The translations under genes were made by a program, and so were the position numbers. Below the pieces are notes generated by a model, which saw only the letters and a list, made by a program, of their open reading frames with translations, did no database searches and was not told the DNA's origin. Of a stretch of 32,000 bases of DNA, positions 6,474 through 20,641 are shown one piece after another. The DNA lies in contig JAUWGH010000002.1 of NCBI GenBank assembly GCA_030606485.1, positions 270,001 through 302,000 of the forward strand. The letters run 5' to 3'. The DNA is from Promethearchaeota archaeon. Its GTDB lineage: Archaea; Asgardarchaeota; Lokiarchaeia; Sigyniarchaeales; SOKP01. Every line of letters begins with the position of its first letter. The stretch's first letter is position 1.

Positions 6474-6850
6474 TCAAATTTTTAACTATTAGATAGACAA
6501 ATTCTGAAATATATTGGAAATTTTTTAAGGAATCAAGGTCATCTCCTCAAAGACCGCAAATATAGGAGTATTATAAGACTGGGCTCAATATTTTTTAAAG
6601 AAGGTAATTACGCAAGTAATTTTACCTCGTGGGATGCAGAATTAACCGAAAGGATACTCAGTGGTAATTCGTTTAAAGTTCTAGGGAATTGAAATGAGAA
6701 TAACTTGTCACACATTTAGAAAATAAAGGGTTGCATGTGGAAAATCGGAAAATTTTATTCAACAACAAAACTGGAGAGGTAAATTCAGAGTCTGATTTCC
6801 ATGAAAATTTCTTTGAAAAGACGAAGTCGCGTAATTATTTGGCACCCTAG
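6469..6850 (+). pseudogene. Probable decayed ORF of unknown function
   Basis: ATG 6469 lies in the repeat. A 1-nt shift would join it to a 68-codon open frame (6486-6692, LLDRQILKYIGNFLRNQG...); a second open piece spans 6704-6850. Confidence 0.35.
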
Positions 6851-6937
6851 AAGAATTAAGAGTTTTAAATCTAAAAGAATGATCACATTTATATTATTAA
6901 ATGACAAAGTATTCCACTGTAATTTAAAAAAAAGAAG

Positions 6938-7999
6938 ATGATAAAAATTTTATTACAAAATTTCAACACAGCTTGGGCATGGCCTTGGTATACGGTTATG
7001 GTGACTATTAACGTCCTGGGCCTGGTGTTTTGTGCAGTTGTTTACAAACGATCCCTGATTCCAAGGGATGGAAAGGATTCAACATATAGGAAACGGATGC
7101 GAATTATGGGGGTAATCTTTACGTTAGTTTCTGCATATCGAGCGATTGGTGTATGGTCTTTACCATATACTTTCCGACTACCGAACACGGTAGCGGAAGT
7201 TTCATTCAGTGGGTTAATTGCGTATGCGATGTTACGATTCAATACTTATTTGCCTGCTACCGACGACGCACGTGCTAATAAATTCAAGTCATTCATAACA
7301 AAGACTCCCTATATCCTAGTAGGATGTATAGTTATATCACAATTCATTGACACATGGGGGGGGATCACCCATTTTGCAATAAGGGGTGCATTCGTGGAGA
7401 CATTATGGGGGATTGGGTTCCTGTCAGTACTCCCACTTGCTATTATACAACTGCGCCGTGTTTTCTCGATAAAAGATAAGGAGGCAGTAGAACGGTTACG
7501 AATACTGAAGTATTCTGCGATAATAATTGCAGCTTGGTGCGTGATTTATTGTATGTACAGGTGGGTCTTTACTTTACCGGGAATGTGGGGTAGGGCGTTA
7601 TATATATTAGAAACGGGGTTACCTGAACTTGAAACTGGCATACAAGCGATAATTGATGCCTTGGGAATTAGAACGCGAACATCGCTAGAGTACCGCGATT
7701 GGGGTTTTAGTTTTCTAATATGGCACTCTGCCTACTTTAGCATCTTAACTTGGATTTCAATATTCTTAATGAAAGCGCCACGACCCCGGGAAATTTCCGG
7801 GAAACATAACGCTAAGCTAACGCTAATAACGCTAGCGCTAATAACGATAGCGCTAATAGCGCTAATAACGATAATTGGCTTACCAGCTGACATTGATGAG
7901 ATAATTATTCTTTTGGTTTTGGGAGGCTTATTTCTCGTACCAATTGCCTACATTTTCGTTTTGGAAATCAAGCGTGTTAAGTTAAAGACTATAGAATAA
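6938..7999 (+). CDS. Polytopic membrane protein of unknown function, compositionally foreign
   Basis: 353 aa, many TM segments. Two sampled 60-nt lines (7021, 7561) are each 27/60 GC (45%), versus ~30% in neighbouring genes. Confidence 0.8.
   Translation: MIKILLQNFNTAWAWPWYTVMVTINVLGLVFCAVVYKRSLIPRDGKDSTYRKRMRIMGVIFTLVSAYRAIGVWSLPYTFRLPNTVAEVSFSGLIAYAMLRFNTYLPATDDARANKFKSFITKTPYILVGCIVISQFIDTWGGITHFAIRGAFVETLWGIGFLSVLPLAIIQLRRVFSIKDKEAVERLRILKYSAIIIAAWCVIYCMYRWVFTLPGMWGRALYILETGLPELETGIQAIIDALGIRTRTSLEYRDWGFSFLIWHSAYFSILTWISIFLMKAPRPREISGKHNAKLTLITLALITIALIALITIIGLPADIDEIIILLVLGGLFLVPIAYIFVLEIKRVKLKTIE
7808..7873 (+). repeat. In-frame 9/15-nt tandem repeat (GCGCTAATA[ACGATA]) encoding LTLITLALITIALIALITI
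   Basis: Units read directly from the sequence. Confidence 0.8.
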
Positions 8000-9608: not shown

Positions 9609-9736
9609 GTTAAATATTTATTAATAGACAGATTACTCTTTTTTTAAATATAGCAACATACTTTTAACTATTTTTTTATTAAAAAATAGATTTTTTAAAC
9701 CTTTTTTAAAATTTAATAAATTAATGAAATTCGATG

Positions 9737-10002
9737 TTTATGCTGAATAATTTATTTTTATTGATAAAGGAAGATCCCGTGAAGACGAACCGGCCCAAAT
9801 CGTAAAGCTTCCAGTTTCAGCTTTGAATTTATGCTCTTGTTCCGAATAGAATTCGAATGCTGATTCATTTAATGTGATTGAAACAGTTTTTTTCTCTCCA
9901 GGTTCTAAATAGACTTTTTCAAAGCCTTGCAGTTCTTTTGGTGGGCGATCTACTGAACATTCATCATCACTAAGATAGGCTTGAACAATTTCCGCTCCCA
10001 GT
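9737..10002 (-). pseudogene. Orphan 3' fragment of a GH3 beta-glucosidase (Fn3-like tail); direct repeat of 15261-15526
   Basis: 266 bp with 13 mismatches by manual alignment. Translates LGAEIVQAYLSDDECSVDRPPKELQGFEK...LSIKINYSA*, with no own start. Confidence 0.93.
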
Positions 10003-10111
10003 CTTCCTTCGAGCTTTTCAAAATTGGTTCAATCTTTTCTAAATTATTAAACATTTCGTTAACTGCCGATTCTAAGCCTTGTTTAGTATCGACTATAAAC
10101 ACTTCTGTCAT
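10003..10111 (-). pseudogene. Truncated 5' end of another gene (MTEVFIVDTKQGLESAVNEMFNNLEKIEPILKSSKE), joined out of frame to the GH3 fragment
   Basis: ATG at 10111 and 36 protein-like codons up to the junction; the frame then stops at 9950. Resemblance to the N-terminus of archaeal DUF362 proteins is from memory and unverified. Confidence 0.55.
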
Positions 10112-10182
10112 TCTTTAAACACCAATTATATTTAGTAGCAATATTGTTTATTATAATATTTATAATATTTCATAACAAAATT

Positions 10183-17619: not shown

Positions 17620-17976
17620 ATGAATGAAGATAGTGAATATGTGAAAAAGTTGTATAACTGTCCAGTGTGCAAGGAAACACACACTGTAAATCTTCCTAAA
17701 AATTTAGCTGATAATCGAACAAAATATCCATTTACTTACGTTTTTCTGCATGGAGAATTAAAGGACTTATTAACTACACTTTATATTGATAAAAATTTGC
17801 AAATCCGTGGAGAACGTGTAATAAAATTGATGGATGATAATATATTTTCTAAAGATCAAGTTTTAAAGATTACACAACAATTAATGAATGAGATTGTTAA
17901 TTTACAAAATGAAAATACTCACCTTCGATATGAACTAGATAAATTGAAGAAAAGTAAAATCACTGAAATTCATTAA
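17620..17976 (+). CDS. Hypothetical protein with CxxC..H putative Zn site and C-terminal coiled coil
   Basis: YNCPVCKETH, then LMNEIVNLQNENTHLRYELDKLK heptads. Confidence 0.8.
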   Translation: MNEDSEYVKKLYNCPVCKETHTVNLPKNLADNRTKYPFTYVFLHGELKDLLTTLYIDKNLQIRGERVIKLMDDNIFSKDQVLKITQQLMNEIVNLQNENTHLRYELDKLKKSKITEIH

Positions 17977-18167
17977 ACTAAGAATAATGTAGATATCAAT
18001 CTTTTTTTTAAAAGAGAATTACTTATTAAGCTTCTTAATTTAAGTAACATTAAAAGATCTTTAAGAAAATACAAGTTTTTAGAGTCTAATTTAATAGAAT
18101 TTTGCAAAGAGATAATTTAATAAAGTTATCTTTATATTATTCTTAAGAAATTTAAAGTTCTAAAAAA
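17893..18167 (+). repeat. 275-bp direct repeat, copy 1 (last 27 codons of the 17620 gene plus downstream DNA)
   Basis: 17 mismatches versus 19266-19540 by manual alignment (~94%). Confidence 0.95.
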
Positions 18168-18190
18168 TAATTGTTTTCTCGAATGATACT

Positions 18191-18247
18191 TAATATTATT
18201 TAATCTTATTGAATCTTATTGAATATTATTTAATATTATTTAATATT
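18191..18247 (+). repeat. 10-bp tandem array, (T/G)AAT(A/C)TTATT x5.7
   Basis: taatattatt taatcttatt gaatcttatt gaatattatt taatattatt taatatt. Confidence 0.85.
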
Positions 18248-18541
18248 GAACAAATATGGAGAGATTTATTTATCAATTCTTCTCTTGCATAAAATCTAAC
18301 TAGACTTCGTGGATTGAACTCTCCTATTTTTGATCAATACATTTTTGTCATTAACTACATAATTTTGTAGGTATCATCATCAAGCTGGATTGGGTTGTTA
18401 ATCTTTGCTGAAATATGTAAATATTCAAATATATATTTCAATATTAATCCCATGATAAGTAACTTTAATAACAAACACATCCTATATTTATTTAATGAAT
18501 AAAATACATTATAATGATTTTAAAAAAGGAAGTGAATAAAA

Positions 18542-18706
18542 ATATCAGAAAAAAAAGAAGAGAAAGAAGAAATAAAACACATTTTAGTTACTAATTCAAT
18601 TCGAAGAAAACTGAAAGTTAAAGTTGCTCAGAAAGACAAATCAATAGTTCAAATAGTAGAAGAATTAATTTATAGGGATAAGAATAAAAATGCCCAAGAA
18701 GAATAA
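18542..18706 (+). CDS. Ribbon-helix-helix-like small protein (54 aa; ATA start or lost ATG)
   Basis: KHILV-TNSIRRKLKVKVAQ-KDKS-IVQIVEELI fits the beta-alpha-alpha pattern. SD-like AGGAAGTGA upstream; the frame is bounded by TGA at 18533 and has no ATG. Confidence 0.55.
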   Translation: MSEKKEEKEEIKHILVTNSIRRKLKVKVAQKDKSIVQIVEELIYRDKNKNAQEE

Positions 18707-18848
18707 AGAAGGGATAATTAAAAGTCTATTGGAATTAGGAGAAATCAAAATCCAAGAAGTATGGGGAATATATGAAGAAATTGAGAGAATAAAGAATAAT
18801 AAAAAAATTGAAAAAACTGCATACAAGTTGCATACAGGAGAATATTAA
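18690..18848 (+). CDS. Small hypothetical protein (52 aa, MPKKNKEGIIKSLLELGEIK...LHTGEY)
   Basis: ATG overlaps the previous ORF end by 17 nt; its stop overlaps the next ATG (TAATG). Confidence 0.6.
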   Translation: MPKKNKEGIIKSLLELGEIKIQEVWGIYEEIERIKNNKKIEKTAYKLHTGEY

Positions 18849-19123
18849 TGAAAATTTCAGGCACATATAAATTTCAGGTTAGCTTGAAAGAGAAGGAGGA
18901 TTGTGATTTATGTGAATTAGTTATGAATCACATAGAAGAATGTATGGAAAAAGATTCTCGGAAACGCCAAGGAAATAACATTTTTGTTAGAAGAAGCGGT
19001 AAAATAACAAATAGAGATATTCTTATTTGTTTAATGAACTATTATAAAAGATATGAAATGAAGAAGAAATCAGAATATTCTGATGATGTTAAGAGAATTG
19101 CTGAAAAAATGAATAATCCATAA
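18848..19123 (+). CDS. Small protein (91 aa) with CxxC and RHH-like spacing
   Basis: YKFQVSL strand, helix with CDLC, TNRDILICLMNYY helix; TAATG coupling. Confidence 0.65.
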   Translation: MKISGTYKFQVSLKEKEDCDLCELVMNHIEECMEKDSRKRQGNNIFVRRSGKITNRDILICLMNYYKRYEMKKKSEYSDDVKRIAEKMNNP

Positions 19124-19200
19124 AGAGTAAAAAAGAATATCTTATATCGAGTTGTCTTAACTTTTATGTTTCGTAAAAGTTTAATTTTATCACTTTCATA

Positions 19201-19245
19201 CTAATTGTATCCTAACTGCTTTCTAATTGCATCCTCAAAGGATAC
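19201..19245. repeat. Two 13-bp direct repeats CTAATTG(T/C)ATCCT at 22-bp spacing plus an inverted AGGATAC half-site
   Basis: 19201-19213, 19223-19235 and 19239-19245. Confidence 0.6.
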
Positions 19246-19265
19246 ATCTTGTATAGATATATATA

Positions 19266-19540
19266 ATTGTTAATTTACAAAATGAAAATAATCACCTTCG
19301 AAATGAGCTAGATAAATTAAAGAAAAGAACAATCACTGAACTTCATTAAACAAAGAATAATGTAAATATCAATCTTTATTTGAAAAGAGAATTACTTATT
19401 AAGCTTCTTAATTTAATTAATATTAAACGATCTTTAAGAAAATACAAGTTTCTAAAGTCTAATTTAATAGAATTTTACAAAGAGATAATTTAATAAAGTT
19501 ATCTTTATATTATTCTTAAGAAATTTAAAGTTCTAAAAAA
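19266..19540 (+). repeat. 275-bp direct repeat, copy 2 (orphan gene 3' end IVNLQNENNHLRNELDKLKKRTITELH*)
   Basis: ~94% identical to 17893-18167, followed by a local ~20-bp duplication TAAAGTTCTAAAAAATAGAA. Confidence 0.95.
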
Positions 19541-19612
19541 ATAGAATTCTTAAAGTTCTAAAAAATAGAAACATAATATATTTTATGCATATCTTAAAAA
19601 ATTTTGATTAAA

Positions 19613-20641
19613 ATGACTAAAAAAGGAATTGATAAGGAAAGAAAAAATAGAGAAGAGAGTTCGGAAGAGAAAATACTGACAGAGGAATATGTGGATAAAT
19701 TTAAAATAATAGCAGAAAATATTCATAAAACATATCTTCTTGGTACTACAGCGGTTGCAGCCTTGAGAGGTGTAGATCTTAATGTCAAAGATCAAGATTT
19801 TGTAATCATTATGGGTCCAAGTGGAAGCGGAAAAACAACGTTATTAAATCTTATAGGGGGATTAGATACTCCAACACGGGGGAAGATCTTTTTAGAAGGC
19901 CAGAATATAAGTATGCTTTCTGATAATCAGTTAGCTGATATTAGAAGAGATAAGATTGGTTATGTGTTTCAATTTTATAATTTGTTACCCCAAATGACAG
20001 CTTTAGAAAATATTATGGTCCCGCTTCATTTTGCAGGTAAATTTAGCCGTAGGGGTAAGCAAAAGAGAGCTATGGATTTACTTGAAATGGTTGACCTTGA
20101 TGAACGAGCACATCATACACCTTCAGAGTTATCTGGTGGAGAACAGCAGCGGGTTGCAATAGCACGGGCATTCGCAAATGATCCAGCAATATGTGTCCTA
20201 GATGAACCTACGGGTGATTTGGATAGTAAGACGGGTCAGATGGTAATGAATTTATTACGAGATTTAAATAAGAGGGGTGCAACATTTGTTGCAGTAACAC
20301 ATGATGCGAAAGTAGCAGAATTTGGAACAACAACACTTCATATGCTTGATGGCAAGATTGTAGAAGAAAGAATTGCGGATGGGCTCAAAGAAACAAGAAT
20401 GATGAAAAAGATACGACAAACTGAAGCAGAAGCAAATAAATCTAAGTGTGAGTCTCATATATTTAAATATCTTTTTAAAAATCAAGGGCAAACCGAGTAT
20501 ACTATTTCCATAATAAAGCAATCAATTCCGAAACCAATTCTTGATAATATTCCTTTGCATTTTAATGATATTCTCCAAGGAATGATAGATGATGGAAAAT
20601 TGCCCGGAAAGGTTCAAGGTCAAATGCTTATATTTGGATGA
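19613..20641 (+). CDS. ABC ATPase, LolD/MacB/FtsE family, with ~90-aa C-terminal extension (start re-called to ATG 19613)
   Basis: [46 protein letters not shown]. Confidence 0.92.

Follow-up and report, generated by a model that had tools for sequence, protein, structure and literature searches.

How does a cassette of three very small genes, without a recombinase of its own, come to lie between two copies of the tail of a host gene? The question is raised by a 32,000-nt stretch of DNA (the window, positions 270,001 to 302,000 of contig JAUWGH010000002.1, here G000:C1:270001-302000) from the Promethearchaeota archaeon assembly GCA_030606485.1, a genome of 3.75 Mb in 13 contigs whose close relatives are metagenome-assembled genomes labelled Promethearchaeia or Promethearchaeota. 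Two direct repeats of 275 nt, 94% identical with 17 substitutions and no gaps, start 1,373 nt apart in the window and bracket 1,098 nt of other DNA (Table 1). This insert is, on balance, probably the cut-off, integrase-less left end of a larger Promethearchaeia integrating element, still lying at its attachment (att) site. The initial annotation, made from the sequence of the window, had already given the coordinates and identity of the repeats, the inclusion of a gene 3' end in them, a 10-bp array, three packed small open reading frames (ORFs) and 22-nt-spaced repeats inside the insert, and the lack of a recombinase; all of these features are present as described, and the ORF list and Pfam reveal no recombinase ORF in the insert.

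The insert is strain-variable mobile-element DNA without a recombinase. The locus was compared with the conspecific L038/L054 (JGI contig), the sister species G001 and G002, and a member of another genus (G015). In L038/L054, 96-98% identical to the window over 14 kb and with the same gene order (GH3, p118, ABC genes), the site is empty, with a single repeat copy and no insert. The sister species G002 likewise has one repeat copy and p118 directly upstream of the ABC ATPase gene, and in the distant genus G015 the ABC gene directly follows p118; the empty arrangement is therefore ancestral. No match to the insert DNA is found among 40 relatives. For the public runs X1 (the probable source), X2 and X4, contigs built from k-31 words were compared with the locus. 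A contig of X4 passes from the repeat straight into the right flank, with zero cover over the insert. In X2 the major strain has the empty site, and a contig identical to the window carries the insert at depth 11, next to flanks of a strain about 98% alike at depth 56-78. In X1 the insert has a depth of 58 and the flanks 65-67, with no excess copy number. In a further run, X3, there is zero cover over 18156-18660, a gap that filtering or low complexity may cause. In L037, a contig of yet another run, the insert is 98% identical and has one additional array unit. The join between the insert and bases specific to the right repeat is found again, with 0-1 differences, in contigs from independent public runs of three studies, and strain mixing can thus not explain the duplication. 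The two doubts raised by the initial annotation, that the insert might be fixed in all relatives or that the duplication might be an artefact of mixed strains, are settled by these contigs and by the clean empty sites in conspecific strains and a sister species.

Could the insert lie outside the chromosome? The last 63 nt of the two repeat copies are identical, and contigs from k-31 words fit either copy to the left of the insert. Because of this identical right end, such contigs are compatible with a chromosome that is truly empty and a free 1.37-kb circle, made of the insert and the right repeat, that the assembler threaded into it. We regard such a circle as extremely improbable: the depth of the insert is near, and slightly under, that of the chromosome in three runs and the insert has no replication gene, both of which argue against it, and reads of 150 nt span the 63-nt block, making a misjoin unlikely in an assembly of 13 contigs. 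Nor does the insert look like an autonomous replicon, with no Rep-like family among its proteins and no depth above that of the chromosome. No terminal inverted repeats are found at 18168 and 19265, and the insert is present in one copy in the genome, unlike insertion sequences and miniature inverted-repeat transposable elements.

What, then, do its genes resemble? The closest parallel is a 1.7-kb scaffold (L056) that begins with the C-terminal part of a tyrosine integrase and continues with a 420-nt spacer, a ribbon-helix-helix (RHH) gene, a 43-aa protein (p43) and a 109-aa protein (p109). The third gene of the insert, p91, is 43% identical to p109 over 88 aa (E 4e-29), and the second, p52, is 70% identical to p43 over 27 aa (E 2e-11). 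The integrase fragment of L056 is 84% identical (E 8e-51) to a 307-aa integrase on a second relative, L041, where the gene order is likewise integrase, RHH (50 aa, RHH50), p53 and p100; here p52 matches p53 (47% over 45 aa, E 4e-6), and BLASTP gives no alignment of p91 with p100 or of the window RHH with RHH50. The first ORF is only weakly similar to the RHH protein of L056 (29% identity over 35 aa, E 0.32). It reaches the Pfam family RHH_10 with E 0.0022 and 18.6 bits, under the cut-off of 27, and the L056 gene itself has weak matches to RHH_10 (E 0.0012), FitA and ParG, all with E around 1e-3; no match was found among solved structures. Since the order of the module and its overlaps are kept between relatives at only 43-70% protein identity, these are real genes in the family.

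Beyond these relatives, the proteins are nearly without kin. An exhaustive HMMER search with p91 gives five matches, including P0005 (on L056; 43% identity, E 1.7e-17) and P0008; a word-indexed search of 5.8 billion proteins returns its own variant only, and 154 genomes of the order hold no relative. For p52 no further relatives are found among the 5.8 billion proteins. Pfam, PADLOC, NCBIfam and PHROGs give no hit for p52 or p91, and no family with a role in toxicity, defence, replication or particle structure was recognised; p52, p53 and the integrase have no relatives among the viral contigs of IMG/VR. The search for relatives of the three proteins, which the initial annotation had directed at Asgard genomes and at virus and plasmid contigs, led to the L056/L041 context. 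A third homologue of p91 (85 aa, 36% identity) lies at L057:161-867 after two small zinc-ribbon ORFs, one of which weakly matches a PSV ORF131-like domain (E 0.0034) and hints at a virus context. Structure models of p91 (mean pLDDT 49.6 from the single sequence and 46.4 from a four-sequence alignment) were too low in confidence for a fold search.

The copy in the window shows signs of decay. At 18542 the RHH-like ORF has ATA where L056 has ATG, behind a Shine-Dalgarno-like GGAAGTGA; the ATA is common to all independent contigs, and there is no indel at this place in L037 or in runs X1 and X2. Judged by this alignment, the canonical start codon is lost in the window copy. In the insert, L037 differs from the window by 12 substitutions, 9 of them in the ORFs; about six are non-synonymous, two are synonymous and two shift stop codons, a pattern that would roughly match the neutral expectation, the numbers being small. 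The genes of the insert therefore appear to be decaying.

The second line of evidence is the position of the insert. Similarity to the host stops at 18167/18168. The 13-mer GTTCTAAAAAATA on the host side of this point recurs exactly in the spacer of L056, 84 nt past the integrase stop codon, where its chance expectation, from the frequency of this 13-mer in G000, is 0.002 per contig. After it, at the same relative position, L056 has its own 10-bp array (L056:361-410), and in a MAFFT alignment the window at about 18160-18275, array included (about the first 110 nt of the insert), is colinear with the L056 spacer through the TTATTGAA units and beyond. The array is an arm feature conserved in the family, and its units are probably protein-binding or bending sites. 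On the reading that these alignments suggest, an L056-type element has its attP between integrase gene and array, and the left junction of the insert reads as an attL, with a host arm and an element arm. The 17-mer TTAAAGTTCTAAAAAAT is confined to this locus in G000. An operator motif shared by the window and L041, TTCAATATT, is not enriched.

An integrase-bearing member of the family has used almost the same point. Strains 99.5% identical to G001, though not G001 itself, carry a large element of at least 16 kb. It covers L039:7760-10354, L041:9424-20924 and L044:1-15163 and continues to the contig end. Its genes include the 307-aa Xer-like integrase (Pfam Phage_integrase, PF00589, E 2.9e-21; XerA-like in NCBIfam), a 176-aa RHH and MarR-like protein, RHH50, p53, p100, a 956-aa protein with a weak MCM_OB match and an HNH-like 205-aa protein. 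In GenBank phage records the 956-aa protein has no match and the integrase finds matches of only about 25% identity; in IMG/VR no relatives of the element are found. The large element begins immediately after TTAAAGTTCTAAAAAATTAGAATT and the insert of the window immediately after TTAAAGTTCTAAAAAATA, so that the two left junctions are at most 8 nt apart, inside the palindrome TTCTA(A)nT(T)AGAA. The motif GTTCTAAAAAAT(T)AGAA is thus a candidate att core for the L041/L056-type integrase. Tandem 25-nt units carrying this palindrome are also found in the empty sites of L038, G001 and G002 (compared at window 19525-19570, L038:5533-5580 and L024:3548-3594); they may be a double attB or a scar left when an earlier element integrated and was excised. 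Recovery of the large element stopped short of its right end, the contigs upstream of the ABC gene beginning inside the repeat.

G000 itself holds two PF00589 matches, both unrelated to the family integrase: a Xer-like gene at C1:146.7 kb (23% identity) and, at C1:390.7 kb (C1:390705-391235), a frame with an internal TAA, near which diverged direct repeats lie at C1:383-398 kb. Elsewhere in G000 there are homologues of the large element's genes, namely p138 at C1:207524-207865 (53%), p60 at C1:5849-6019 (75%) and fragments of the 956-aa protein at C2:327563-329218, a sign of more elements, or remnants of elements, related to it; the p60 homologue sits in a repeat-bounded segment, C1:3224-10835.

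A simple course of events would join these observations. The family would encode a Xer-like tyrosine integrase and attach at a short palindrome about 190 nt downstream of p118, and integration would give the element a left end with the array and the RHH-p52-p91 module and a right end with the integrase. Everything beyond p91, integrase included, would then have been lost here, and the truncated end joined illegitimately to a 275-nt host copy of an older or different allele. The parent would have been a site-specific element, virus-like or plasmid-like. The order of these events we infer; the fragment would now be immobile, or movable only through an integrase supplied in trans or through host recombination between the repeats. 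Of the two possibilities named by the initial annotation, a minimal satellite-like element or a remnant, it is the remnant that fits best: the insert is not a self-contained element of a new kind, its genes and array being the integrase-adjacent module of a larger family, and as a remnant it would be an object of an ordinary kind and no new class.

Table 1. Features of the locus in the window (positions are those of the 32,000-nt stretch).
Feature	Positions	Strand	Description
Target gene p118	17620..17976	+	118 aa, intact; N-terminal CPVC motif, coiled-coil C-terminus
Left repeat O_L	17893..18167	+	Last 84 nt of p118 and 191 nt downstream, up to the putative attachment core
attL-like junction	18157..18183	+	Host-side 13-mer GTTCTAAAAAATA, then putative element arm (ATTGTTTTCTCGAAT...)
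Insert	18168..19265	+	1098 nt; probable truncated left end of an L056-type integrative element
10-bp array	18190..18247	+	Units TTAATATTAT and CTTATTGAAT; 5.8 copies (Tandem Repeats Finder)
RHH-like ORF	18536..18706	+	56 codons between stops, without ATG, GTG or TTG start
p52	18690..18848	+	52 aa, small helical protein, middle gene of the conserved module
p91	18848..19123	+	91 aa, third gene of the module; GGAG 9 nt upstream of its ATG
13-nt direct repeats and inverted partner	19198..19254	+	Direct repeats 19201-19213 and 19223-19235, 22 nt apart; inverted partner 19239-19254; just before the putative truncation junction
Right repeat O_R	19266..19540	+	Orphan duplicate: p118 3' end plus spacer
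Host attachment region	19530..19567	+	Two tandem 25-nt units, each with palindromic TTCTA(A)nT(T)AGAA; attB-like, right of the insert
ABC ATPase of MacB/FtsX-type transporter	19604..20641	+	Right flank; Pfam ABC_tran E 1.5e-35

Where does the second repeat copy come from? At 12 of the 17 sites at which the two copies differ, the left copy agrees with the single copy of L038, and the other five changes are private to it. At 7 of these 12 sites the right copy has the state of G002; the other five are private changes of its own, and no site conflicts. The repeat tree is ((left copy, L038), right copy), with seven supporting sites and none conflicting. By this comparison it is the left repeat that is native. 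The right copy falls outside the alleles of the species, and is therefore not a fresh duplication made in place; the tree implies that it diverged before the strains of the species split and after the split from G001 and G002. It would thus be either left over from an old event or derived from a sister lineage. The reading of the repeats as ordinary att sites of the element is not supported: the putative core is a short motif at their right edge, and the rest of the right repeat is diverged host DNA. The integrase-side arm of L056 has no similarity to the p118 tail, so that the right repeat is not a native part of the attP there. A crossover within the repeat, suggested by differences in the contig of run X4, was discarded, as the comparison with the full L038 shows a native left copy over its whole length.

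The junction at 19265/19266 is, as its sequences read, illegitimate, and three routes to it can be proposed. In a first, aberrant excision would have taken up DNA of the left flank, followed by re-integration at the core. Alternatively, the right part of a resident element may have been replaced by incoming DNA with an empty site, anchored by homology in the ABC region. The third would be an unequal exchange followed by excision. The right copy diverges from L054 by 7.6%, dropping to about 1-2% within a few hundred nucleotides to the right, a profile that leaves the three routes unseparated. The repeats that precede the junction (19198-19254) have no counterpart in L056 or L041.

Could the insert instead be a small element that still moves? 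It would be a satellite, mobilisable in cis or trans, that excises as a 1.37-kb circle through the cores or the repeats and re-integrates by means of the integrase of a full-length relative or of the host RadA, carrying host DNA from strain to strain. Such an element would account for an insert that is polymorphic among strains about 98% identical and whose copies are 98-100% identical across studies where the flanks differ by about 2%. The core motif stands in direct orientation at both flanking sites, no separate arm-binding domain is detected in the Xer-like integrase, making core-only recombination plausible, and a foreign-type right repeat is what would be expected if it is carried with the element. 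In L039, moreover, a repeat-bounded insert (a different one) and an incoming integrase element stand in tandem at this site. Against these points, G000 encodes no helper integrase, the depth of the insert is not above that of the chromosome, it is in single copy and, in the collections searched, limited to this site and species, and the lost RHH start codon and neutral-looking substitutions do not suit a functional element. We consider an active non-autonomous element of this kind unlikely, and its specific form, a working hitch-hiker in which a core-only Xer-like integrase or recombination between the repeats moves the 1.37-kb circle together with 275 nt of host DNA, decidedly so. If true, this would be gene flow akin to specialised transduction or to that of cis-mobilisable elements, in the archaeal lineage closest to eukaryotes, and the repeat-bounded insertions nearby would stem from the same traffic.

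Integrases might also have had no part in the event. The host could have gained the genes by homologous recombination with a circle or fragment from a related lineage that was homologous to the 3' region of p118, by a Campbell-type insertion or by homology-facilitated illegitimate recombination, the position at the integrase attachment motif being incidental. The event would then be one case of a broader process of repeat-bounded insertion in G000. The genome offers parallels, with about ten other direct-repeat pairs, 93-97% identical, around spacers of 1-15 kb, some copying a gene 3' end; in G001 an unrelated 2.1-kb cargo lies between 78-107-nt repeats of the same region, and not at the core; and the longest identical block of the repeats, 63 nt, is at their right end, as a homologous crossover that leaves a native left and a foreign right copy would have it. 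Homologous recombination alone is, however, insufficient for a left junction that falls at the core of the family, with an adjoining arm homologous to the L056 spacer, and the neighbouring GH3 tail is unlike a Campbell insertion, a conspecific strain having the cargo without the orphan copy. We hold gene gain of this sort to be very unlikely.

The repeat-bounded insertions are worth describing for themselves. That of G001 (L024:1224-3348; L039:5412-7536) lies at the p118 tail, its repeats are 84-94% identical and its junctions are away from the integrase core; it carries on the minus strand a 383-aa membrane protein with CBM96 and Kre9/KNH matches, a transmembrane helix and a C-terminal zinc ribbon. 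In the window itself, 462 nt (9682-10143) that hold an orphan copy of the GH3 3' end (9737-10002) are absent from L054, which retains the PadR-ABC-ABC module, the variable part being the orphan GH3 tail. A further 1.5-kb segment between 61-bp repeats (6478-7998) is absent from L054, which has one copy of the repeat region and is thus empty at this place too. The direct-repeat pairs of G000 (about ten, of 130-900 nt, several with a copy overlapping a gene 3' end) include C1:3044-3224/10835-11015, C1:7667-8008/9263-9604, C1:395951/397683, C4:53008/57248, C4:201976/216633, C13:48502/58478 and C10:459949/465362. In G000 no CRISPR array was found by a simple search for identical 22-mers that return four or more times with a spacing of 50-95 nt, and an Rfam scan and a tRNA gene search found no RNA genes.

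The target gene deserves a word as well. Orthologues of p118 are 92% identical within the genus and 40-55% across the order; Atlas groups the protein with Promethearchaeota hypothetical proteins, and no Pfam family matches it. It is, judging by these matches, a member of a Promethearchaeota-specific family. Shorter paralogues are numerous across the order, and the N-terminal 90 or so residues weakly resemble the starts (24% identity, E 0.004-0.007) of two proteins of about 730 aa, at C4:125222-125458 and C4:133922-134203 of G000.

How firmly does the truncated-element reading stand? Several points weigh against it. No complete element with precisely these genes was recovered, and the truncation is therefore inferred from relatives only 43-70% identical in protein. 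The attachment core is proposed from sequence alone, and the family is not uniform: in L041 the junction lies upstream of the 176-aa gene and the integrase gene, and not between integrase and array. The right junction needs an extra illegitimate event, whose route is open to several proposals, and it is the genome assembly that joins the left copy to the insert. Between copies of the insert, the ORFs are no better conserved than the non-coding parts, a pattern that may point to functional sites, and the presence of an identical insert at low depth in a run where an empty-site strain predominates also fits ongoing movement.

Which known systems does such a remnant resemble? In defective prophages, and in specialised-transducing phages of the lambda dgal and dbio type, one prophage end is kept with its att junction, and the other end and the recombination gene are lost. 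The resemblance lies in the illegitimate joining of adjacent host DNA to a truncated element; the differences are that the locus gives no evidence of packaging or virions and that the host piece is only 275 nt long. Cis-mobilisable elements (CIMEs), which derive from ICESt1/ICESt3-type elements of Streptococcus, are defined in PMC5704250 (which names Pavlovic 2004 and Bellanger 2011). As in CIMEs, a decayed integrated element without integration genes appears to lie between recombination sites by the 3' end of a target gene, and incoming integrase-bearing elements can accrete in tandem at the same site, as in L039. Derivation from an integrative element by loss of the integration genes is likewise indicated here by the homologous module and arm and the missing integrase; compared with a complete tyrosine-recombinase element, the locus has an attachment core and an empty site but no integrase of its own. 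The window case differs from CIMEs in being archaeal, 1.1 kb long and without a conjugation context, and its right side is an attB-like core that follows a 275-nt diverged host duplicate without an element arm, a true attR not being seen.

Nearer in phylogeny are the integrated elements of Atabeyarchaeia, of 1.3-40 kb, among them Yucahu-i, with an 11-bp att motif, and mini-Yucahu-i; read mapping showed that those elements circularise (PMC11529989). Like the family at this locus, they are Asgard elements that integrate with tyrosine integrases, have short, AT-rich att motifs and vary in presence within natural populations. In both cases very small elements and sub-elements occur and one att motif serves unrelated elements, and the insert lies inside the range known for small integrated elements in Asgard archaea. 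The window belongs to the class Promethearchaeia, no sequence relationship with those elements was found, and long duplicated host flanks are not reported there (PMC11529989). A type II toxin-antitoxin system with an RHH antitoxin would look similar, as a cassette of about 1 kb that varies between strains and in which a small RHH gene overlaps the small genes behind it. Here, however, no recognisable toxin partner was found, the module is a fixed neighbour of an integrase in the relatives, and the RHH start is lost.

The mobile elements of Asgard archaea are still sparsely described, and the locus adds a strain-resolved example from Promethearchaeia. It supplies an attachment hot spot downstream of a lineage-specific gene, and reveals an apparently undescribed integrase-bearing family (no IMG/VR or GenBank phage match) together with a decayed derivative at the same site. 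The candidate att core and its integrase form a pair that may be of use as a genetic tool. The locus also illustrates how small accessory fragments and duplicated gene tails may originate in these genomes.

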